From Eledone cirrhosa (lineage: Eukaryota): 64,000 nt of DNA. A program made the translations under genes and the position numbers. Positions 3,545 to 60,240 of the stretch are shown here, one piece after another. Under the pieces are notes generated by a model. That model made no database searches. It was not told the DNA's origin and was given only the letters and a program-made list of their open reading frames with translations. The DNA is taken from assembly GCA_964016885.1 (NCBI GenBank), contig OZ024748.1:7192001-7256000 (forward strand). The letters run 5' to 3'. The stretch's first letter is position 1. Each line of letters begins with the position of its first letter.

Positions 3545-4815
3545 TGGTATATATTTGTTGTTGGACCCCTGGTATATATTTGTTGTTGGACCCCTGGTAT
3601 ATGTTTGTTGTTGGACTCCTGGTATATATTTGTTGTTGGACCCCTGGTATGTATTTGTTGTTGGACCCCTGGTATATATTTGTTGTTGGACTCCTGGTAT
3701 ATATTTGTTGTTGGATCCCTGGTATATATTTGTTGTTGGACCCCTGGTATATATTTGTTGTTGGATCCCTGGTATATATTTGTTGTTGGACTCCTGGTAT
3801 ATATTTGTTGTTGGACCCCTGGTATGTATTTGTTGTTGAACCCCTGGTATATGTTTGTTGTTGGACCCCTGGTATATGTTTGTTGTAGGATCCCTGGTAT
3901 ATGTTTGTTGTTGAACCCCTGGTATATATTTATTGTTGAACCCCTGGTATATATTTGTTGTTGAACCCCTGGTATATATTTATTGTTGAACCCATGGTAT
4001 ATATTTGTTGTTGAACCCCTGGTATATATTTGTTGTGTGACCCCTGGTATATATTTGTGTGACCCCTGGTATATATTTGTTGTTGAACCCCTGGTATATA
4101 TTTGTTGTTGAACCCCTGGTATATATTGTTGTTGAACCCCTGGTATATATTTGTTGTTGAACCCCTGGTATATATTTATTGTTGAACCCCTGGTATATAT
4201 TTGTTGTTGAACCCCTGGTATATATTTGTTGTTGAACCCCTGGTATATATTTGTTGTGTGACCCCTGGTATATATTTGTTGTTGAACCCCTGGTATATAT
4301 TTGTTGTTGAACCCCTGGTATGTATTTGTTGTTGAACCCCTGGTATATATTTGTTGTTGAACCCCTGGTATATATTTGTTGTTGAACCCCTGGTATATAT
4401 TTGTTGTTGAACCCCTGGTATGTATTTGTTGTTGGACTCCAGGTATATATTTGTTGTTGAACCCCTGGTATATATTTGTTGTTGAACCCCTGGTATATAT
4501 TTGTTGTTGAACCCCTGGTATATATTTGTTGTTGAACCCCTGGTATATATTTGTTGTTGAACCCCTGGTATGTATTTGTTGTTGGACTCCTGGTATATAT
4601 TTGTTGTTGGAATCCTGGTATATATTTGTTGTGTGACCCCTGGTATATATTTGTTGTTGAACCCCTGGTATGTATTTGTTGTTGAACCCCTGGTATATAT
4701 TTGTTGTAGGATCCCTGGTATATATTTGTTGTAGGATCCCTGGTATGTATTTGTTGTTGAACCCCTGGCATATATTTGATGTTGAACCCCTGGCATATAT
4801 TTGATGTTGAACCCC
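3545..4815. repeat. 25-bp minisatellite, ~50 copies
   Basis: Unit ggtatatatttgttgttgaacccct; accounts for the 25-aa periodic ORFs. Confidence 0.97.
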
Positions 4816-7154: not shown

Positions 7155-7234
7155 TAGATAGATAGGTAGGTAGATAGATATAGCATTATATAAAACTAAC
7201 ATCATATGGTATCTGTATTATCTTCAGAAATTAA

Positions 7235-7510
7235 AATAATTGTTTCTACTTTAGGCACAAGGCCAGCAATTACCCAGTACATTACTGGTACTTTATTTTA
7301 TCGACCCCGTAAGGAAGAAAGGCAGGGATTTGAACTCAGGCTGTAAAGGAACGTTATTATGCTAGAGCGCATGGCGTTCAACCCTCTACCGATACTGCCA
7401 ATTCCATATTAAAATAATTGTTTCTACTTTAGGCACAAGGCCAGCAAATTATCCAGTACATTACTGGTACTTTATTTTATCGACCCCGTAAGGATGAAAG
7501 GCAAAGTTAA
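7235..7510 (-). mobile_element. Two tandem SINE A copies (near-full 7235-7402; truncated 7412-7510)
   Basis: Family match. ttaaaataat occurs three times (7231, 7409, 7518) and brackets both copies. Confidence 0.88.
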
Positions 7511-8116
7511 TTCCATATTAAAATAATGTCGTTTTCTCCTTAATTCGATGTCTTCGAAGTCGGAATATATGAACTTGGAATGTCCAATATCTTGGAAACT
7601 TTAATGAAAGACAACTGAAAGCCTACCATTACTAACAGAGTTTCAGCTTTGGAGGTTTACTGCCATAAAATTAGTTTTTTAAGGTTTTTCATTGTTTGTG
7701 TCAATAATATTATTGTTTGTTGAGGGTAGGCAGTTCTAGAGATCCTGTCTTCTCCCACCCTCACATAAATCTAACTTTATTGTGATGATTTCTCTTTTAT
7801 TGAATGTGAAGAAATAAAACCAAGTTTTTGATGTCTGTATACATACACATACACATATACATATACACATATACACATATACACATACACATATACACAT
7901 ATACATATACATATACACATACACATATACATACATACACATATACATATACACATATACATACACACAATAACACACATTTTCTCACACACACATTCAC
8001 ATGAGTGCATAGAGGGTGATTATGTCACTCTCTCATATATGTATATAAAAAGAGAGTGAGAGCTCTCTTACTCTCTCTATATATATACTTATATGTAATA
8101 TATGTACGCATGTTTG

Positions 8117-14940: not shown

Positions 14941-15440
14941 TATATCTATCTATCTATCTAAGGCGGGTAAAATTCCCGAGATCCATGGACGAGCTCTCTC
15001 CAGCGGTCTCTGTCCCTCATTATCGCTGCCATATCCTGCATCTCCAACAGACCAGTGTCTGTCCTTAGGGCATCAACATATGTTGACCTTGGTCTTCCTC
15101 TTCTAGTGTGTCCATGTAGGGGCTCCCAAAGGAGCACTGAGTGCAATGTCAACTCTGGATGTCGGTGAGCATGTCCAGCCAACCTCAGTCTTCTCTGTGT
15201 CACTTTTGAGCTGACTTTTGGGATGCTCCCATACAGCTCTGAGTTTTTCATCCTCAGTGTATACTGATTAATGTTCAGAGCCATCCTCAGCATTCTCGTG
15301 TAGCACCCTTCCACCATCTGAGTGAGTCTCTTGGTCAGTGTCCAAGTCTCAGACCCACACAGCAGCACAGACTCCACTACAGCAATGAAGAGGCGGACCT
15401 TTAGGTCTCTACGAAGGTCCGACTTCCACACCGATCCCAT
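14941..15440 (-). mobile_element. 5'-truncated RTE-type LINE fragment (C-terminal ORF, (TAGA)n tail)
   Basis: ORF 14958-15440 contains KVRLFIAVVESVLLCGSETWTL, RRLRLAGHAHR and RRGRPR, typical of the RTE post-RT region. The stop codon runs into a tetranucleotide tail. Confidence 0.88.
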
Positions 15441-19831: not shown

Positions 19832-19992
19832 TACAATAATATGAATCAAACAGACGATGTTACAATATCCCGAGCAGCTTGGAACCATTAATTTCGATAA
19901 CAATAACCACTTAGTAACATTATCCACTCACACACATACATAACACAATACAGATAAAGACTTTGATAGCTACATTAATTATAGTCTAGCTA

Positions 19993-20175
19993 TGGATTGG
20001 CAGTATTGGTAGAGGTTCGCACGCCATGCTTTGCAGCATAGAGTTACGGCCCTTTATGGTCTGAGTTCAAATTTCGCCGAGGTTAACTTTGCCTTTCATC
20101 CTTACGGGGTCGATAAAATAAAGTACCAGTAATACACTGTGATAATTGCTGGCCTTGTGCCAAAAGTAGAAATAA
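19993..20175 (+). mobile_element. SINE A with 19-bp TSD
   Basis: TSD attaattata(g/t)tctagcta at 19974-19992 and 20175-20193. Confidence 0.92.
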
Positions 20176-20633
20176 TTAATTATATTCTAGCTATACTTCA
20201 CAGCATATTTCTTGTTTGATTTTGCAGGTTTAAAGGATATTATAATTACAGTTTTCAATGTTGATATTATAATTACAGTTTTCAATGTTGGTATTAGTTT
20301 ATAAAATAGTTTATAATTACTACAAACCACAAAGAAAAACTAATAACAAAAAGAAATCCTGTAGGAATAATTAGAAGACAATTAAATATTGATACAATCT
20401 ATTGTATTTATAGATGTAAAATATAACAAAGTGATGGGTAGTCGTTGATATGTGTGTCTCTAAACAATATGATCAACATATGATAAAGACATCTCTCTCA
20501 GACATTCACTTCATGTCTACCCCTCCCCTCCCCCTCTCGCTCTCGCTCTCGCTCTCTCTATATATATATATATGTATCTATCTATCTAACTCCGTGTCTA
20601 TCTTTATATTTGATTATTTTTTTGCAACACACG

Positions 20634-21644: not shown

Positions 21645-21999
21645 AATTATTTCTACATTTGACACAAGACCAGGAATTTTGGAGCAGGGAAATGTCGATT
21701 AAATTTACCCCAGTGTATTACTGATATATTAGTTTATCGAGCCCGTAAGGTAAGACTAACTACTGCGAGATCTGAACTCAGAACGTAAACGGCCATAACT
21801 TTTTGCTGTAATAATTGTTTCTACTTTAGGCACAAGGCCAGCAATTACCCAGTGCATTACTGGTACTTTATTTCATCGACCCCGTAAGGATGAAAGGCAA
21901 AGTCAACCTCGGCGGGATTTGAACTCAGATCGTAAAGGGACGTAACTATGCTGGAAAGCATGGCGTCCGACCCTCCACCGATACTGCCAATCTGCCGCC
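21645..21999 (-). mobile_element. Full-length SINE A (21812-21999) inserted into an older SINE A-related copy
   Basis: 16-bp TSD tttttgctgtaataat at 21800-21815 and 22000-22015. The older diverged copy spans 21645-21808. Confidence 0.92.
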
Positions 22000-24178
22000 T
22001 TTTTGCTGTAATAATAATTAAGAATTAATTACAGTATTCTATGTAAAGATGTTTCTTCTTCTGTGTTTCATTCGTGAAGAAGCGATGGGCTCCGTTAAGT
22101 ATTAGTGTGAAGTATGTCACTATGGCGGCTCTAAGACTCCATCGGGAGTTACGGCTCCATCCACACATACATATTAATTTCACCGTTTCTCTTCAATCTA
22201 CGAAAAAATGCCCCAATTTTACATGTTTATGCTTCTATACTCAATGTATATATCCAATGTATATATTCAAAGTATATATTCAATGTACATACTCAATGTA
22301 TATACACAATGTATTGAATATATACATTGTGCATATACACAATGTATATATTCAATGTATATACACAACATATATACACAACATATATACACAATGTCAT
22401 ATTCAAGCTCTTTCTATCCTCTCTTACGGTTATTTTGTATTCAGTCCAAACAAAATCCGACCTTCAGATAACCAGACTAAATTTGAAATAGTATTCAATG
22501 TTTTGAGATTTTCATTTTTTAAATAAATTGAAAGGGTAATATTTGCGAATACATCAGATTTCCGCTTCACTAGAGTGGAAAAGAAAATATAATCTAAGCA
22601 TGATGGCGGTTACTTCGCATCAAAATAACATAACCCTTTCATATATATTACACTGACTCCCACTCTACGTCTCTGTTTTCTACCATGCTCTATCTCACTC
22701 GACCTATCTCTAATTTAAGAATCATTCCTTTTTGTTTTAAAATAGAAAATAAATTGACTATGATAACCAATATTGTAGATAAACATTGTATCTCAAATAT
22801 TCTCAATGGTTAGTTGATGGCAATTTTAGCGCAGTAGGCCTAGGACGTCACCTTCTTTAATACACCCCTCATCTTGCACAAACTAGTTACGTAGTCTCCA
22901 TGACACTTTTTGAACTCACAAAAATAATACCTAAATTCCCTCTTATCAAACCTTTCCATCTGTGTATATAAAGAAACGATGAAATGGACGAGGTAAGATG
23001 GCTTGGATGTAACAATTCTTTGGGAAACAACATTCTCGCTCAGTATGATTATTTTCAGCTTCCTTTTTAAAACAATTTATCCGAAATAAAGTGAACAAAT
23101 CTCATTGAACCTTTGATAAACCAAGACAAAGTTGCGTACAATGTTACTTGAATATAAATTGCTTACCTACGAATTTGTAATTTTAAAAATTCCTTCTTTC
23201 GGCACACGCTTATGTGCTTCCACTTTTTCGTTAGTATGAAAAGGTTTCTCCTAAATCTGCTCCCTTGTGCCTTCAGTTGCCTACACTTGGTCTCTCACTG
23301 GCCGTGTACTTTTTTCTTCTCCGGATATTTCATCGAATCTACAGAATTTCTGCATAAAATTGAAACCGGATTTCGTAACTCTATTGGCCAGGAAATTACA
23401 ACCTCATCCCTCTCCTCAACAGGATGGTGTACAGTTGCGGTAAAAACTACATATTGTTCGTAGTATCGGGAGAAATGACTGTAACATGCTTGTTCACTTA
23501 ATTTTGACATCCAACAGACTTCTCCTCAAACTCTCCCCCTTATGTTACCTTATATAGAACCTAGTCTAGACAGTGAACTACAGAGAAGGATATGGACGTT
23601 AGACATATCCCATGAGGAAAGAAAAAAAGGACTGGAATGGGAAATCAGACACAACAAACAAGATTAAATGTTCCTATATTGGAATCTTCATATAATAGAG
23701 TTTGCTGTTCTGGGAACCATATTCTATGTAGATTCCTGTGTTTGGTATCTCAGAAAGAACCATGTTAATTCTACGTATCGGTGTAAACGTTGTCAGTATG
23801 GAGTATTTTAGCTTAAATGTTTACTGACATGTTATGTTGTAGTAGCTCTGTTCTTAACATGGTTTGCTCTTTTATCGGGAAGCGGGAAAATCCCTAATTC
23901 CGATCAATAGATGGAATATAACAATGTAACATTGATAGAAGGATCCAAACTATATCGCATTATCGCGTTTTTTTTTTTGTTTTTTTGCAGAACTGACCGA
24001 ATTAGCGTGGAAATATGAAGAAAGGGGAGATAAAGGGATGGAGTAGAAAACTGTGGAGTGGAGGGATAGAGAAGGATAGAGCTGAGATGTGAAAGAGAAA
24101 GAAATATAGAGAGAGTGTGAGAGGGAGAGAGAGAATGTGTGTGTGTTGTGTGTGAAAGAGAGAGAGAGGGGGGCAGAT

Positions 24179-30146: not shown

Positions 30147-30411
30147 GGAGTGCTCTCCCTGGGTGCCCTAGAAGCGCAGGGTGGTTCAGGATTGGTGGGG
30201 TACCCGAGTCACCCCAGGGTCGTCCACCCCCTATCGGGGAATTTATTTTGTTATATTTATGCATAGTTTATTTTATATTTTTATATCTTCATTTTTAAAT
30301 TAGTCTTGCCATTGTACACTTTTACTCGACCTTATTGTAAACCCCCACTGTCCCTGTCTTTGTATTGTCCTCTACACGTCGACCCTTGTGGCTAATAAAT
30401 GAAATCATTAT
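30147..30411 (+). mobile_element. 3'UTR-only fragment of the Tx1-like LINE
   Basis: Homologous to 59775-60010 (gggtgccctag...aaacccccactgtccctgtc...cccttgtggctaataaatgaaatcatt). Confidence 0.9.
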
Positions 30412-30603
30412 TTGGCAGTATTGGTAGAGAGTCGGACACCATGCTTTCCAGCATAGTTATGTCCCTTTATGATTTGAGCTCAAATCCCGCCGAGGTTAAC
30501 TTTGCCTTTCATCCTTACGAGGTCGATAAAATAAAGTACCAGTAATACACTGGGATAATTGCTGGCCTTGTGCCTAAAGTAGAAACAATTATAATTATTA
30601 TTA
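30412..30603 (+). mobile_element. SINE A inserted in the ATT tail of a LINE fragment
   Basis: Begins immediately after gaaatcattat of the 30147-30411 LINE piece. Confidence 0.9.
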
Positions 30604-39000: not shown

Positions 39001-39075
39001 ACTTCTAAACTAGGCACCTTCATTATACACCATCACTATACACCTTCATTATACACCTTCATTATACACCTTCAT

Positions 39076-39260
39076 TGGTGGATTGGCAGAGTTAGTAGAG
39101 GGTTGGACATGCTTTCCAGCATAGTTATGTCCCTTTACGATCTGAGTTCAAATCCCGCCAAGGTTAACTTTGCCTTTCATCCTTACGGGGGTCGATAAAA
39201 TAAAGTACCGGTAATGTACTGGATAATTGCTGGCCTTGTGCCGAAAGTAGAAACAATTAT
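39076..39260 (+). mobile_element. SINE A inserted in a short minisatellite
   Basis: attatacaccttca on both sides (39061-39074, 39256-39269). Confidence 0.9.
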
Positions 39261-39454
39261 ACACCTTCACTATACACCAATATATAAATATTTAAATAGA
39301 GTTCGTTAGTTACAGCATCTCTCCATCTCTCCACACCGCCTCCATTTCTTCCAAACCTCACTTCTACTTTAGACTTACTCTCAGACAGGTAATCAAACTG
39401 AAATACCAGCTGCTAGGTAGATGGTTTTGCGGCTATGTGTATACATACATGTAA

Positions 39455-41111: not shown

Positions 41112-41148
41112 CTACATTTCTGCCCTTGTGGCCAATAAATGAAATTAT
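41112..41148 (+). mobile_element. Ultra-short 3' tip of the Tx1-like LINE
   Basis: ctacatttctgcccttgtggccaataaatgaaattat matches the last ~40 nt of the LINE. Confidence 0.75.
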
Positions 41149-41424
41149 CCCTGGGTGCCCTAGAAGCGCAGGGTGGTTCAGGATTGGTGGGGTACCCGAG
41201 TCACCCCAGGGTCGTCCACACCCTATCGGGGAATTTATTTTGTTATATTTATGCATAGTTTATTTTATATTTGTATATCTTCATTGTTAAATTAGTCTTG
41301 CCATTGTGCACGTTTACTCAACCTTATTGTAAACCCCCACTGTCCCTGTCTTTGTATTGTCCCCTACATGTCGGCCCTTGTGGCTAATAAATGAAATCAT
41401 TATTATTATGATGATTATTATTAT
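41149..41424 (+). mobile_element. 3'UTR-only fragment of the Tx1-like LINE, near-identical to the 30.1 kb copy
   Basis: Same sequence as 30158-30411 with few substitutions; (ATT)n tail. Confidence 0.9.
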
Positions 41425-53383: not shown

Positions 53384-54025
53384 CACGCACTCGTTCAGTG
53401 CTCGATCGCGTGTAGAACTGATCCGGTTATCGACTGAGTCCATTGTGCAGATGGTCTCGCCGTCTTCCTTCGAGGAGGAAGGGCAGACGGTTTTCATCTG
53501 CCTGGTGGCCATGGTGAAAGAGATTGTGTGGTGGACAAGGTTAAAAGGGTTAAAGACAGACGTTTTCCTCTTCGGCGAAACCCTAATTAACTTTTTCAAG
53601 TTTCACTTGAAGAGGAAAATCAGGGTGGAGAGGCAAGTGCTGCCTTCTAGCAAGTTTGTTGAAAGGTGGGTGAAATGTAGCGAGAATGGTCCGAGTGAAC
53701 GGGACCGCTCTGAATATACGTCTGTAGTTTGAGAAATGGAAAAATTGAGAGAGGGCGCTTGCTCTGGTGGTCAGGGTGGCCGTGGTCTTTTGTGTGGTTT
53801 TCTCCACGAGTAAACCTCGGAGGTTTCCCCCTATTGGGAAATTTTTCATTGTTTCAATTTTCATTTTTATTGTTTATATATATATATGTTTCTATGTCTT
53901 TTTTTCTTTTCTTATATAAATAATAAAAATATTTACACGCACAAAACGGACATCGTACGGTCCTGTACCGTCCTGTGCCGTCTGTAATGTTTTTCTTGAT
54001 GTCAGCCCTTGTGGCCAATAAAGAA

Positions 54026-54066
<41 letters not shown>

Positions 54067-54081
54067 TATTATTATTATTAT
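53384..54081 (+). mobile_element. 5'-truncated, diverged copy of the same LINE lineage
   Basis: Aligns by eye to 59371-60025 (translation WWTRLKGLKTDVFLFGETLINFFKFHL). Has a deletion near its 5' end, a frameshift and a divergent 3'UTR. Ends GCCCTTGTGGCCAATAAAGAAATC(ATT)n. Confidence 0.92.
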
Positions 54082-54439
54082 GCTTCTTTTTTTCAGATCG
54101 AGACGCAGGTGAATTTCCTAAAATTGTGGTTGGAGGATGTTAAATACTTTCAATTTACAGCCAGTCAAGAAAGATGGCGACAGAACATTATTATACCACC
54201 AACAGTATTATTATTATTATTATTATTATTGACGAAAGTGGATGTACGTTTTTTGAAGCTCCGTGAGTAAGCAATTTTTGAGGATTAATTGTAGAGAATT
54301 GTTTATTTTTTGTACCGCTGAAGCATTATAAGACATTAATTTGTATCCTGTGAAGGAATAACTCATAATATTTGGGCCTTTTGGCCCAAATATTTGAACT
54401 TTATTTTGAAAAAAATAATAATTTTTTTCTCAAAAAAAC

Positions 54440-56302
54440 ATGGCGGAGCCACGCCCCCTAGAGGCGGGTCTGCTGTCGTGCAACGGCGACTTGAGCGTTG
54501 AGAGGAGAGGTGAGGCGAGGAGCGCCACCAGCACGAATGTGAGCAGCGACAGTGCCAGCACCAACGGGCCGAGCGGCGCGGAAGGTGGTAACAACGACAA
54601 CACCAACACCAACAAGCCGAACAGCGCAGAAGGTGGTAATAGCGAGAGCACCAACAAGGCCAACAGCACAGAAGGTAACCACGACACAGGGGAGAACAAC
54701 AACAGCAATAGCAGCAGCAACACCAACAAGAACAACAACAGTGACAACACCAACAAGAACACTTTCGCTGCTGTGGCAGCGGCTAAAAGGAGACCATGCT
54801 ACAGCATCGACTTAACCAACAGAGAGGAAAAGTTGGCCCAGGCCTGGAAAATCATAAACCAAGAGCAGACCTGGGCAAACTTAACTGTCCCGGCAGAAGC
54901 CATTGAGGCAGTGGAAAAAAGAACGGTGCATTTCAGATGCATCTCAGTAGAGACAAAGAGGGCAGCGATAATCGCCCAAGCTGACATAGAAGCCGCACTG
55001 AAATACATCAGAGAGGACACAGACTTCATAGAGAGGGGCAGGCAATACGGCACCGTTTCGGTGCTGTTCAAGTCTGAAGCCCTCGCTGTGAAGCATTCAA
55101 TGACCCCTTGCAAAACCAGCAAGGTCATAATGTACCCCTCCCACATGGGAAAACGAATAGCACGTGTGCGCATTCCCAGGATTCCACCAGGACTTGATAT
55201 GTGGTGGCTCCTGGGTTGCGTAATCGTGGAAGGAACGGATACAGTCCCGGTAGAGGCAACGAGAACTGCCAGGGACGACTGGTCCGGGGTTGATCTGGAG
55301 ATACTGCTCCAAATCAGACCCGAAAACGTAAAAACAATCCCGGACCACATCCGCCTCCAAAACGGGAGGGTGTTGCATATAATGACTGAGGGCAAAAGGC
55401 CGCATTGTTTCCTTTGTGGGGAAACGACACACTTGCGAGCCTTCTGCCCTCAACTGCCGAAAAGCGCAAGGGGTCGAAAGATTCCACTGCTGGCGACGCC
55501 GGGACAAGGACCACCAGCAACACCGTCAACAATGGAACCACCAAAATTGCACACCCAGGGGGGAAACGAGGAAAGCTCTCCCATTCCCCCTCCCCCCCAA
55601 AATACACACACGAACAAGAACATAAACACTCACTCAGACACAAACACGCTCACAGCCACAGACCCCTCATCCTCCAGCAGTGAAGATGAGGGAAAACCAA
55701 AGTCCCCCAAAATACAAAAAACAAAACACAAAAAAAAAAGAAATCCACAAAGCACAAACACCCCCACAAAAGAAAATACACACACCACCCACACAAACAT
55801 TTTCCCCACAGCATCACCAACACAACCACCAAAATCCCCCAAACGCAAACAAGCTAAACAGACACAAGAACAAATAGACACACAAACATCAGAAACTACA
55901 GACACCCCACCCACAACAAACGCAGACACAATAGAAACAACACTAACAAAGCTATCACCACCACAATCACACGAACAAATAAAACCCGAGCAACAAAACA
56001 TTAAAAACTTCGTGCTTGCCAGAAGGGCCAACAAGGAATTGATGGCCCATGTAGCACGAAGCACAAACATCGAAAAAGACGGGGAAACATTTGAAGCGAG
56101 CACATTTCGCGTACCAGATAATTTGCTTCTGATGCGAATGTCGCTCGCTTCATACAAAGAAATTCGAAAGAGCTTTCCTCGGGATGTGGGAACCCCGAAC
56201 GTAAAACCCACGTCAAGACTATTAAAGGGGTTCCCAAAAGAAACCCCACAAACCATGGAGGTCGAACCACCCGACCTTCACAAGACCCCGGAAGGTAAGT
56301 AA
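54440..56302 (+). CDS. LINE ORF1p, gag-like nucleic-acid-binding protein (620 aa)
   Basis: Single CCHC knuckle CFLCGETTHLRAFC (CX2CX4HX4C). N/S/T-rich N-terminus, possible RRM-like centre and a T/P/K-rich linker. Lies directly upstream of ORF2. Confidence 0.9.
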   Translation: MAEPRPLEAGLLSCNGDLSVERRGEARSATSTNVSSDSASTNGPSGAEGGNNDNTNTNKPNSAEGGNSESTNKANSTEGNHDTGENNNSNSSSNTNKNNNSDNTNKNTFAAVAAAKRRPCYSIDLTNREEKLAQAWKIINQEQTWANLTVPAEAIEAVEKRTVHFRCISVETKRAAIIAQADIEAALKYIREDTDFIERGRQYGTVSVLFKSEALAVKHSMTPCKTSKVIMYPSHMGKRIARVRIPRIPPGLDMWWLLGCVIVEGTDTVPVEATRTARDDWSGVDLEILLQIRPENVKTIPDHIRLQNGRVLHIMTEGKRPHCFLCGETTHLRAFCPQLPKSARGRKIPLLATPGQGPPATPSTMEPPKLHTQGGNEESSPIPPPPQNTHTNKNINTHSDTNTLTATDPSSSSSEDEGKPKSPKIQKTKHKKKRNPQSTNTPTKENTHTTHTNIFPTASPTQPPKSPKRKQAKQTQEQIDTQTSETTDTPPTTNADTIETTLTKLSPPQSHEQIKPEQQNIKNFVLARRANKELMAHVARSTNIEKDGETFEASTFRVPDNLLLMRMSLASYKEIRKSFPRDVGTPNVKPTSRLLKGFPKETPQTMEVEPPDLHKTPEGK

Positions 56303-56331
56303 ACCTTTCCTCTCCCATTCATCCTGCCAGC

Positions 56332-59300
56332 ATGGCCATAAGAGTAGGAAGTTTAAATGTTCGTGGCCTGGGGTCGCCCTGGAAGCAAGGTCACTTGCTC
56401 AACGACCTCAGGTCACTAGGAATGGATGTAATTGCCATCAGCGAGACCAGAATTTCCGACACACGCGCACTGGCGCCGATTTTCGACGATTATCAGATCT
56501 TTGCATCTGTTAGTCGGCCGGGAATGGGAGGTGGAGTGGCTGTGCTGTTTAGGAAATGTCTGGATCTCGAGGTAAGGTCAATCTTCCGGGATCCTGACGG
56601 AAAGTTGGTGGTCCTGGACGTGAGCAATAGCGAAGGTGGTGCCTTTAGACTGGTGGCCGTCTACGCCCCTACTGGGGCCGGTCGGCCGGACTTCTTTAGG
56701 CGCCTGGAAAACTTTCTGCTTACGTCTCGCCCTTTACTGTTAATAGGGGATTGGAATGGCATCTTAGAAGCACGCTGGGATTGTGTGGGAGTATCTGATA
56801 GGAGCGGGGGGTGCAAAAGCCTCAAGTACCTGATCAGCCAGTTTCAACTGTCTGACAGGTACCGACTAGATTTCCCTAATGCGCCAGTATGGACCTGGAC
56901 CAATCGCATAGGGTCATCTAGATCGTACATAGATAGGATTTTCATTAGGAAAAGAGATAGAAATAGTGTAGGATGTCCACATTTTAAAACGGTTGCCTAT
57001 TCAGATCACAAGCTTGTGATCTGTATGGTCGACCTAGATAAGACACGTAGGTTAGGACCTAGCTACTGGAAGCTAAACATGTCGTTTCCGGCACGTAAAG
57101 CTTACAGGGACCGGGTCAACAACTTAGTTAAGCAAAAGTTGACAGGGGGGGTTGTCAACAACAGGTGGTGGGGGGCACTCAAAAGAGAGATTAGAGCAAC
57201 CTCGATAGGATTTAGCAAAGAAGTAGCAATAGAGAAAAATAGAAAGGAGGAGGGGCTGATAGCTAAGTTAGACGAGGCTATTTGTAGTGGCATTGCAACA
57301 GACGTGCTAGCGGCGAGAATGGCACTAGACCATTTCTTCAATGCGAAACACGAAGGTTGCATTGTCAGAGCTAAGGCGCGTGCTCTGAGGAACGAGGGAA
57401 CCAAAGCTGCCCGATGGGCTCGCTTTGCAGAGACGCAGCGTGGAAATAAAACCACAATTCGGTCTTTGACGGATCGAGATGGACACGAACTGAGCGATTC
57501 CAAGCGGATGTGTGAGGCCTTTCGCCAGCACTTTGCTCGATTGTTCGGGAGGATGGGTGAGTCGGAGATGGCGGCGGACTTCAGTCCCTACCTCGACGGC
57601 TTGCCACGCCTCTCGACGGCCGACGCTGAGCGCTGCGAAGAGCCGATAACATCAGCCGAAATTCAGGACGCCCTTGTCGGCTGCTCGAGTCGCAAGTCAC
57701 CCGGTTTGGATGGTCTGCCCTACGAGCTTTACGTAAATATGCCAGACTTGTTCTCCGATCTCCTCGAAGCGCTCTACTGCAACTGGCAGCAGAACGGGAG
57801 CATTCCCAGTTCTGTGAGCCGTGGCGTAGTGACGCTGATAAGGAAAGACGAGAACAAGAGGGACACACTAGATAATTTCAGGCCCATAACCCTGCTCAAC
57901 ACAGAGTTTAAGATTTTGGCCAAGGTGTTAGCGAAAAGGTTGGCGCTTGTCGTCAAAGATTTGGTTGGGGAGGCGCAAACTTGCGCAATCCCGACCAGGT
58001 CCATACACGACAACCTCCACCTCATGCGATACATCATAGAGAGGGTTGGGTGCAAACCTGGCTTCGGTGGGGCTCTGATCAATTTAGATCAATCGAAAGC
58101 ATTCGATAGGGTCGACCATCGGTACTTGGAGGCTGTCCTCGAGGCGGCTGGCTTCGGCCCCGTCTTCAGAAGCTGGATCGCTGCAATGTACAGCGGCATC
58201 CGCTCGGTGGTCAAAGTTAATGGCCACCTCTCGGAACCGTTTCAGATCTCTCGATCGGTCCGTCAAGGGTGCCCTCTCTCCTCACTTCTGTACGTATTGA
58301 CTCTTGAGCCTCTACTGCGGAAGCTGGAGTTGTTGCAGGGCATCCCGCTCGAACCGGGACGTAGAAAGGCTGCGTCCGCTTATGCGGACGACATCACCGT
58401 GATGGTGTCGGACACCTCGGAAATCGAGGTGATCCGCACCCATTTGGAGGAATATGAAAGGTTGACGGGAGCAAAACTTAACCCGGAAAAGTCGGTGGGC
58501 TTGCAGCTCGGCACCTGGAGAGGCAAGTCCATGCCGTCCAACAGCGTCGTTGGGCGCTGGACAGACGGACCGGTAAAGTTGCTCGGGGTTTGGTTCGGAC
58601 CAGACCTCCAGGTGGATAAGAATTGGGACGAGGTGACGAGCAGGATAGCCAACCTCACCCAGAAATGGGCTGAGAGAAAGCTATCACTGAAAGGGCGGGC
58701 GGAGGTGGCGAACGCGTACATCGCGTCCGTCATCTACTACCGCCTGACCGTCGTGCCTTGCCCCCGTCCACGCCTCGCCAATTTGGAACGGCTCCTTTTC
58801 AAATTTTTGTGGAGGGGACGGGTCCCGTTGGTGAGGCGGTCCATCTGCTGCCAGCACCCTCTTCGTGGAGGGCTGGGCATGCCGTGGCTAATGATGCGCA
58901 GACATGCGCTGAGGCTGCGACATCTCCAGATATTTTGCCTAAACGGTGAACAGGTGTGGTCGCCGTTTGTTAGACGGGCCTTTCCGCAGCTCATCTCTTT
59001 GACTGAGCTGCAGTCCTGGGTCAAGAAGAGACCGAGACTGGGCGACTGGCATCTGGAATGTTGCCAGGCGCTCACTGCACTCTGCAAGGTGGGCAATGCG
59101 GTCAGTGGAACTTCCACTCAAGATTTCTATAGAGGATTAGTGGAGGGCAAGTGCGATGACGTACTAGGAGAGGCTCTGGGCGTCAACGAAGTAGAACTGA
59201 CCAGTATGTTCCGGAGGACTTTCGAGCCGGGGACGATGGATAACTTCCAGAAATCCCTCGCTTGGCAGTGCTACCGGGGGGCGCTGCCGGTTCGGGATAA

Positions 59301-59751
59301 ACTCTACAGGCACGGAAGTGCTGTCAGACGAACCTGCCCGAGATGCGCGCAGAGCGACGAAACCGTTCTGCACGCACTCGTCCAGTGTCCGTGCATTGCT
59401 GACTTGTGGGGTTATGTCGAACAGCTATTGTCGCGTGTAGAACGGATCCGGCTATCGTCCGAGTCCATAGTGAAGATTGACCCGCCGCCTTCTTTTGGTC
59501 AGGAAGGGCAGGCAATTTTCCTCTGCCTGGTGGCAGTAGCGAAAGAGGTTGCATGGTGGACCAGGTTGAAAGGACTGAAGACAGACACTTTTCTCTTCGG
59601 CCAATCCCTCATCAACTTCTTCAAGTTTCACTTGGAAAGGAAGGTGAGGGTGGAGAGAGAAGTGCTGCCCCCCAGTACATTTACTGAAAGGTGGGTGAAT
59701 GTGGCGAGAATGGCCCGCGTGAGTGGGCCTACTCTGATCATGCGCCTGTAG
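56332..59751 (+). CDS. LINE ORF2p: APE endonuclease + reverse transcriptase + C-terminal zinc finger (1139 aa)
   Basis: APE motifs: SLNVRG, SET, VYAP, GDWN, SYIDRIF, SDH. RT motifs: KSPGLDG, FRPITLLN, LDQSKAFDRVDH, VRQGCPLS, YADD. C-terminal CPRC-x8-H-x4-C. Confidence 0.97.
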   Translation: MAIRVGSLNVRGLGSPWKQGHLLNDLRSLGMDVIAISETRISDTRALAPIFDDYQIFASVSRPGMGGGVAVLFRKCLDLEVRSIFRDPDGKLVVLDVSNSEGGAFRLVAVYAPTGAGRPDFFRRLENFLLTSRPLLLIGDWNGILEARWDCVGVSDRSGGCKSLKYLISQFQLSDRYRLDFPNAPVWTWTNRIGSSRSYIDRIFIRKRDRNSVGCPHFKTVAYSDHKLVICMVDLDKTRRLGPSYWKLNMSFPARKAYRDRVNNLVKQKLTGGVVNNRWWGALKREIRATSIGFSKEVAIEKNRKEEGLIAKLDEAICSGIATDVLAARMALDHFFNAKHEGCIVRAKARALRNEGTKAARWARFAETQRGNKTTIRSLTDRDGHELSDSKRMCEAFRQHFARLFGRMGESEMAADFSPYLDGLPRLSTADAERCEEPITSAEIQDALVGCSSRKSPGLDGLPYELYVNMPDLFSDLLEALYCNWQQNGSIPSSVSRGVVTLIRKDENKRDTLDNFRPITLLNTEFKILAKVLAKRLALVVKDLVGEAQTCAIPTRSIHDNLHLMRYIIERVGCKPGFGGALINLDQSKAFDRVDHRYLEAVLEAAGFGPVFRSWIAAMYSGIRSVVKVNGHLSEPFQISRSVRQGCPLSSLLYVLTLEPLLRKLELLQGIPLEPGRRKAASAYADDITVMVSDTSEIEVIRTHLEEYERLTGAKLNPEKSVGLQLGTWRGKSMPSNSVVGRWTDGPVKLLGVWFGPDLQVDKNWDEVTSRIANLTQKWAERKLSLKGRAEVANAYIASVIYYRLTVVPCPRPRLANLERLLFKFLWRGRVPLVRRSICCQHPLRGGLGMPWLMMRRHALRLRHLQIFCLNGEQVWSPFVRRAFPQLISLTELQSWVKKRPRLGDWHLECCQALTALCKVGNAVSGTSTQDFYRGLVEGKCDDVLGEALGVNEVELTSMFRRTFEPGTMDNFQKSLAWQCYRGALPVRDKLYRHGSAVRRTCPRCAQSDETVLHALVQCPCIADLWGYVEQLLSRVERIRLSSESIVKIDPPPSFGQEGQAIFLCLVAVAKEVAWWTRLKGLKTDTFLFGQSLINFFKFHLERKVRVEREVLPPSTFTERWVNVARMARVSGPTLIMRL

Positions 59752-60240
59752 GCTGGTGAATTCGAGAAGGAGAGGGGTGCCCTTCCCGGGTGCCCTAGGA
59801 GCGTCGGGTGGCTCAGGACTGGTGGGGTGCTTGAGTCAACCCTGGGTGGTGATCCCTCTTATTGGGGAACTTTCATTGTTGTATTTTTATTGTTATTTTG
59901 TTTTTTTGTTATTTATACTTACTCGATCTCTATGTAAACCCCCACTGTCCCTGTCTATTGTGTTGTCCCCTATATGTCGGCCCTTGTGGCCAATAAATGA
60001 AATCATTATTATTATTATTATTATTTAATGTTCTCTCTCTCTCTCTCTTTCCCTCTCTCTCTCCCTCTCTCTCTCTATGTGAGCACTGAACTTTTCATCA
60101 GGAAAAAACAAAAGAAAACACATTTTTGAAAAAGAAATAAAAAGAAGGAAAGAAAAAGAAGGAACACTTCGTTATTTTTACTTTTGAAAGCAAATGTTGA
60201 GAGACAAAAGATGACAAAGATGATGTGTTAATACAAGCGA

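Follow-up and report, generated by a model that had tools for sequence, protein, structure and literature searches.

A young Tx1-like LINE in the ATT microsatellites of Eledone cirrhosa and a possible role for RNA-borne ATT at both of its ends

When a retrotransposon lies between two runs of the same simple repeat, has it selected that repeat as its target, or has it brought the repeat along at the ends of its own RNA? This question is raised by a long interspersed nuclear element (LINE) in a 64,000-nucleotide stretch of Eledone cirrhosa DNA (assembly GCA_964016885.1, contig OZ024748.1, forward-strand positions 7,192,001 to 7,256,000; the whole stretch is hereafter the window), whose core occupies positions 54231-60004 on the plus strand between (ATT)8 at 54207-54230 and (ATT)7 at 60005-60025, as an original prediction made from the letters alone had placed it. 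On the basis of sequence comparisons across the genome we consider it fairly probable that the element is an intact and young Tx1-like LINE that enters ATT microsatellites in one orientation and one phase, by way of a nick in the AAT strand, pairing of its RNA tail and an ATT head carried by the RNA.

An intact LINE and its ATT surroundings

The element, all of whose parts lie on the plus strand, begins directly after the upstream ATT run with an invariant G, the first base of a 5' untranslated region (UTR; 54231-54439), and continues with an open reading frame of 620 amino acids (ORF1, 54440-56302) that features a single CCHC knuckle (55406-55447), a second frame of 1139 amino acids (ORF2, 56332-59751) and a 3' UTR (59752-60004) ending in an AATAAA-containing motif that is common to sister families and similar to the tail of a short interspersed nuclear element (SINE). 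ORF2 matches the Pfam families Exo_endo_phos, RVT_1 and zf-RVT, corresponding to an APE endonuclease (about 56350-57009), a reverse transcriptase (RT; about 57856-58590, with YADD at 58381-58392) and a zf-RVT module (about 59251-59409), and contains the motifs LNVRG, SETR, VYAP, GDWN, YIDRI, SDH and YADD as well as a C-terminal CCHC, in agreement with the prediction of an APE-type element with two open frames and a complete catalytic set. ORF1 gave no match in a Pfam search; its atlas look-alikes, zf-CCHC at 0.91-0.92 and the ZCCHC3 RNA-binding region at 0.89, serve as a lead only. At the window copy the 5' run comprises the target array and likely an element-borne head of about five units, and in the 3' run tail and target duplication are inseparable. 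An Rfam scan of the 5' end for a self-cleaving ribozyme returned five weak matches, all far under threshold and none a ribozyme, and folds of five heads had no discernible common structure. Together with L079, L141, L150, L166, L175, L183 and L098, the window copy (54440-54800) forms a young group with an ORF1 about 16 amino acids shorter than that of many copies (620 versus 636).

Across the 3.0-Gb, microsatellite-rich genome, the exact 20-base head occurs 324 times, a diagnostic 26-mer of the 3' UTR 342 times and a 3' 30-mer common to the sister families 1235 times. The sampled copies were picked in part by identity to the window copy and otherwise by position; the 86 full-length ones differ pairwise by a median of 34 substitutions over about 5.8 kb, with both ORFs open in 33 and ORF2 open in 51. 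Two copies on separate contigs and with different flanks (L079 and L150) are identical, and 2 substitutions separate the window copy from L141. The copies are thus young and activity at present is likely as judged from sequence, the identical pair at different sites and the 33 copies with two open frames supporting the earlier suggestion of recent activity. The element is also covered by contigs from four public runs with three organism labels between them; read outside the ATT junctions, these contigs show no joint of an empty allele.

Genome-wide, (ATT)3 directly precedes 318 of the 324 heads, always in one phase, and (ATT)5 precedes 308 heads found with an 18-base head pattern; one AAT-strand control pattern gave 0 matches. 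For comparison, 33 arbitrarily placed loci contain 174 (ATT)3 sites per 653,400 strand-positions (2.7e-4 per position), and AT, ACC, AC and GTT repeats are each commoner there than ATT. Heads of sister families likewise follow (ATT)n, in 15 of the 15 printed. Target and tag were separated by examining the flanks beyond the pure ATT runs, using 68 solo copies, that is, copies joined neither to an A/B-type tail (described below) nor to a head of their own family; L090, for which the wrong tail had been paired, was excluded from the counts. The ATT end of another element adjoins 46/68 of these copies against 104/585 random ATTATT sites, and any sign of an older or pre-existing ATT array is found at 59/68 against 206/585 (Fisher p 1.5e-16), or against 101 of 172 (ATT)3 sites (p 1.8e-5). 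Sister LINE families and a SINE are found as neighbours, as are RT elements with a single ORF that run on the opposite strand. Relative to the threshold used in PMC4494074, more than 20% of flanks in one sequence type, the family stands at 318/324, or at 59/68 by flanks beyond the pure run.

These flanks bear directly on the idea that there is no real targeting, only loose nicking of AT-rich DNA, with all junctional ATT supplied by the head and tail of the RNA. Such an idea accommodates SINE duplications that lie outside arrays at short ATTA sites with non-ATT sequence upstream, as well as the two-unit sites used by truncated copies (see below), but it does not predict that flanks beyond the pure runs should be enriched for interrupted arrays and the ATT ends of other elements; moreover, the tail contributes 0-2 units at copies with resolved duplications, whereas the 3' run is 12 nt or longer in 75 of 87 copies. 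We regard it as decidedly improbable. The ATT preference put forward in the original prediction therefore holds, in that the 5' flanks of full-length copies do not resemble the background, and (ATT)n apparently extends the target range of an established class of site-selective elements.

The 5' junction and a proposed insertion mechanism

Heavy 5' truncation is the norm in mammalian L1, so its near absence here calls for explanation. Among the first 100 listed 3' ends, 95 extend to the 5' head, 4 are truncated and 1 carries a sister-family head; 90 of them were matched to a head by position, by eye, and the other 10 were fetched, yielding 5 full-length 5' ends, the sister-family head and the 4 truncations. 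Some copies (L077, L081, L090, L139, L200) have internal deletions of about 0.2-1.9 kb with both ends intact, several of them at short microhomologies.

What full-length and truncated copies carry at their 5' ends was assessed from duplications checked by eye only, as an automatic finder gave 8/80 hits against 177/6320 for mispaired flanks, several of its hits being spurious products of interrupted repeats. Where resolvable, duplications are 15-18 bp long. (ATT)3 is absent from the 5' join in each of six truncated young copies (L061, L063, L131, L133, L135, L137): L063 and L133 have duplications of 15 and 17 bp in which two initial ATT units lead into non-ATT sequence, with ends that are not phase-locked (L133), and the other four have no duplication. 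Older truncated relatives (L252, L258, L259) have similar duplications, read by eye, so that, where the target of a truncated copy can be resolved, it mostly comprises some two ATT units. At the full-length copy L075, by contrast with these truncated joins, a 17-bp target occurs in three copies, which make up the duplication of the LINE and that of a neighbouring SINE, and 13 extra bases in ATT phase stand between duplication and head. L159 has a 15-bp duplication followed by 2 bases that restore the phase, and L091, L134 and L141 have duplications without extra bases. Since the truncated copies lack the ATT run (0/6) and L075 has extra ATT after its duplication, the 5' run is likely in part borne by the RNA and able to anneal to the target. 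Distribution patterns can be set beside these cases. Where the 3' run of a solo full-length copy is shorter than 15 nt (18 copies), the repeat break or non-ATT flank is duplicated in 6 cases and not in 12, and a count over 87 copies of bases that fall out of phase no more than 15 nt from the junction gives 7 on the 5' side and 35 on the 3' side. L172 was considered as a second proof of the head and dropped, its original ATT count not being known, and a reconstruction with a SINE in front recovered a SINE head at 3/13 loci only.

The same junctions can be read in terms of a classical endonuclease specificity of the Kibi/Koshi type, whereby both strands are cut within (ATT)n at a fixed phase, transcripts begin at the G, and the flanking ATT is target and duplication throughout. 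A pre-existing array at 59/68 solo copies, a floor of five units (see below) that matches a 15-18 bp duplication, the duplications without extra bases at L091, L134 and L141, and the existence of microsatellite-specific families in the Tx1 clade (PMC4494074) all suit it. The unlocked duplication end of L133 and the extra ATT of L075 and L159 do not, and it leaves unexplained that only 4 of the first 100 listed copies are truncated. We consider it unlikely, though the better placed of the alternatives weighed here.

According to the mechanism we favour, the predicted endonuclease would nick the AAT strand of an ATT microsatellite, and the (ATT)n tail of the RNA would pair with the nicked end and prime reverse transcription. 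Transcription would start within the upstream ATT run, giving the RNA a head of about five ATT units through which the finished complementary DNA could anneal to the ATT repeats of the target. Annealing would close the 5' joint precisely and trim non-matching target, and each insertion would regenerate ATT runs on both sides, allowing new copies to land beside old ones and the resulting dimers to expand by unequal crossing-over. The preference itself may lie partly in the endonuclease and partly in RNA-DNA pairing. A wider proposition is that the RNA largely guides both site choice and completeness, ATT tags at both of its ends leaving about 95% of insertions full-length, in phase and each rebuilding its target, so that several LINE families and a SINE accumulate in the same repeats; we offer it tentatively, leaning slightly against it.

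Several points weigh against the mechanism as we have drawn it. The context classes behind the 59/68 were regular expressions written after the flanks had been seen; neighbouring elements may have inserted in either order; and microsatellite slippage can lengthen and purify ATT runs after insertion. The truncated copies are few, and the 4/6 without a duplication may have lost a flank later, while the targets of about two units used by truncated copies argue against a strictly microsatellite-specific endonuclease. Short duplications lying wholly within ATT would also explain the 12/18 copies without a duplicated flank and could imitate a large part of the junction pattern. Finally, the evidence for the head consists of a single locus at which it is clear (L075), the 2-base addition at L159, an ambiguous case (L142) and the distribution patterns. 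Overall, the claim that ATT is the insertion target stands for full-length copies and falls short as the sole source of junctional ATT, the 5' run not being pure target. The alternative named alongside it, a templated ATT that aids priming, would form part of the mechanism at both ends and fails as the whole account, given 5' flanks unlike the background.

Arrays, partners and other repeats

The original prediction further held that the tails of this element create new target sites. At 58 junctions in 34 places an A/B-type tail is linked to a following head by 5 to 11 ATT units, never by fewer than five, and together with the 46/68 solo copies that adjoin another element's ATT end these junctions support that proposal. 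In one array (G000:C1:423361900-423420200; L182, L183, L088, L089, L288-L296) ten full-length copies stand head-to-tail with exactly (ATT)5 at every joint. A reading of tandem copies as independent insertions, based on 34-41 substitutions among four members against an all-pairs median of 34, was rejected once all ten had been compared: over 2674 columns, the copies on the 5' side form a young block that differs from L079 by 5-10 substitutions, those 3' of it an older block (17-19), neighbours have private variants in common, recombinant members are present, and the second and third copies are identical. This array grew largely by recombination, and the blocks and shared private variants indicate that insertion seeds arrays which unequal crossing-over or conversion then expands. 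Zero substitutions also separate the members of the pairs L153/L094 and L302/L303; identical pairs could be assembly artefacts.

Such arrays invite the view that the family spreads mainly as DNA, through recombinational excision between the two ATT runs and re-entry into ATT arrays elsewhere, or through tandem duplication or assembly artefact. That view accounts for array growth, for private variants shared by array neighbours, for the copies or pairs without substitutions, and for the near-universal full length. It is hardly credible as a general explanation, however, because duplications of 15-18 bp and 5'-truncated copies are marks of retrotransposition, dispersed copies have unrelated flanks, and the endonuclease and RT motifs are intact.

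The SINE offers a parallel. It is abundant, about 190 bp long, has duplications of 14-19 bp and also occurs in tandem; window copies lie at 21815-22030, 39048-39270, 19974-20200 and 7230-7540. Its duplication is resolvable in 11 of 25 copies, beginning with ATT in 9 and with AAT in 2, with the caveat that aattat also continues 12 of the 14 SINEs without a resolved duplication; the SINE tail is itself templated ATTAT, similar to that of the LINE. Of the ATT-initial duplications listed in the prediction, attattacagcaaaaa and attatacaccttca proved to be exact pairs, attaattatagtctagcta has a partner with one mismatch, and attattttaa lies inside a SINE tandem. Outside arrays, SINE duplications start at short ATTA sites with no ATT upstream. 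These data show pairing at the tail rather than recognition of a microsatellite. Because the two tails are alike and both elements used one site at L075, this LINE lineage likely moves the SINE. A short repeat (L102, L121, L255, L264, L268, L274) that has no more in common with the LINE than the final 85-120 bases of the 3' UTR, and upstream of these a sequence of its own, is possibly another non-autonomous partner.

At least three further related LINE families with different 5' UTRs have their G right after (ATT)n (L211, L212, L199, L208), L211 featuring an open 1204-amino-acid APE-RT-zf frame. Two long RT elements that have one ORF and lack an APE domain (L214:1173-4595 and L216:3857-7504), probably Dong/R4, occupy the same microsatellites on the opposite strand, and the repeat at the 3' end of one element of this type hosts about a dozen sampled copies. 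The 5' flank of L070 belongs to the Dong-associated repeat over at least 330 bp and its 3' flank is an (AGT)n array, possibly as a result of ectopic recombination between copies.

Within the window, a 5'-truncated copy of a related family (53384-54080, plus strand, 79% identity, different 3' UTR) contains an interrupted ATT array at 54029-54080 and is preceded by cattattatttattt, as had been noted, plus atcat. At 41112-41419 (plus strand) a 37-base tail fragment lies immediately before a short 3' copy belonging to a related family (74% identity); the copy at 41150 does come right after a gaaattat tail, as had been noted, and the upstream piece, taken earlier for an element copy, matches over 37 bases only. 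Another short 3' copy of a related family lies at 30147-30412 (plus strand, 72% identity). The window also holds a 25-bp minisatellite (3545-4815, 51 copies, 93% identity) and, on the minus strand, a 160-amino-acid fragment at 14958-15440 that we take to be the C-terminus of another LINE. A 607-amino-acid frame elsewhere (L213:7764-9584, minus strand), presumably Penelope-like, had no match in a Pfam search.

Relation to known systems

By its anatomy the element fits a Tx1-like LINE. Tx1-clade ORF2 proteins combine APE endonuclease, RT and a C-terminal zinc finger, all present here, and ORF1 in that clade features a CCHC knuckle and an RNA-binding region, of which the CCHC is found at 55406-55447. 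The best solved relatives of ORF2 are human L1 ORF2p (196 bits) and then R2 (81 bits); a coral protein that carries the automatic name 'Transposon TX1 149 kDa protein' matches the RT at 38% identity, and a homolog in Argonauta has 69% identity. A quick RT tree, built without an L1 row or a curated Tx1 reference, places the element in a separate group of 12 rows (SH-aLRT 99); the row of this tree labelled B_L281 is probably an ORF of family D.

The Tx1 clade includes microsatellite-specific families (PMC4494074): Kibi targets (TC)n, Koshi (TTC)n, and crocodilian Tx1 elements (TTCC)n/(TTTC)n (PMC4494074, PMC3812793). Two ORFs, an APE endonuclease and insertion into microsatellites are common to these and the present element, whereas the junctions here are ATT, not (TC)n or (TTC)n, the host is a mollusc, and (ATT)n is not among the Tx1 targets in the relevant portions of those two papers. 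A literature search found no ATT-specific Tx1; Kojima and Fujiwara 2004, Repbase Reports and the supplement of PMC4494074, which lay outside it, may describe one. The same microsatellite is targeted, as (TAA)n, by Dong of the R4 clade (PMC3812793, PMC4640811), which is active in Octopus vulgaris (PMC13282606, Table 1). Dong differs in belonging to a restriction-like endonuclease clade, in its one ORF and in using the opposite repeat strand; here there are two ORFs, an APE domain and ATT on the sense strand. The 13 recently active L1-Tx1 families of O. vulgaris, with 421 insertions (PMC13282606, Table 1), likely include this family or its counterpart; the word 'target' is absent from the main text of that paper, and the available portion of an octopus brain LINE paper (PMC9115989) makes no mention of Tx1.

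With these findings (ATT)n would join the targets known for APE-type site-selective LINEs; they also bear on the retroelement nests found in microsatellites of octopod genomes. Hundreds of near-identical young insertions provide material for asking how a LINE comes to be attached at its 5' end and what makes most LINEs truncate, a question that a family about 95% full-length with a putative 15-nt tag makes directly testable, and a natural full-length inserter into a dispersed repeat is relevant to the gene-insertion field.

Every ingredient of the proposed mechanism has precedent. In Drosophila, tandem transposable elements arise from double insertion, site preference yielding dimers that can expand into arrays (PMC5932611); the present case differs in its host and in consisting of a 5.8-kb LINE joined by (ATT)5-11. 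For melanogaster-type R1A, transcripts with upstream target sequence have been proposed to anneal and so give precise full-length 5' joints (PMC2718515). R1A is likewise of the APE type, some of its joints consist of a duplication followed by extra target sequence, its truncated copies have ordinary duplications, and it forms tandem arrays at the regenerated site; it differs in belonging to the R1 clade, in targeting 28S rDNA and in a 9-bp deletion (PMC2718515). The junction anatomy described here, as known from DNA, fits the R1A model as a comparison of mechanism rather than of membership, with the distinction that the Eledone element targets a 3-bp repeat that is dispersed and would stand at both ends of its putative RNA.

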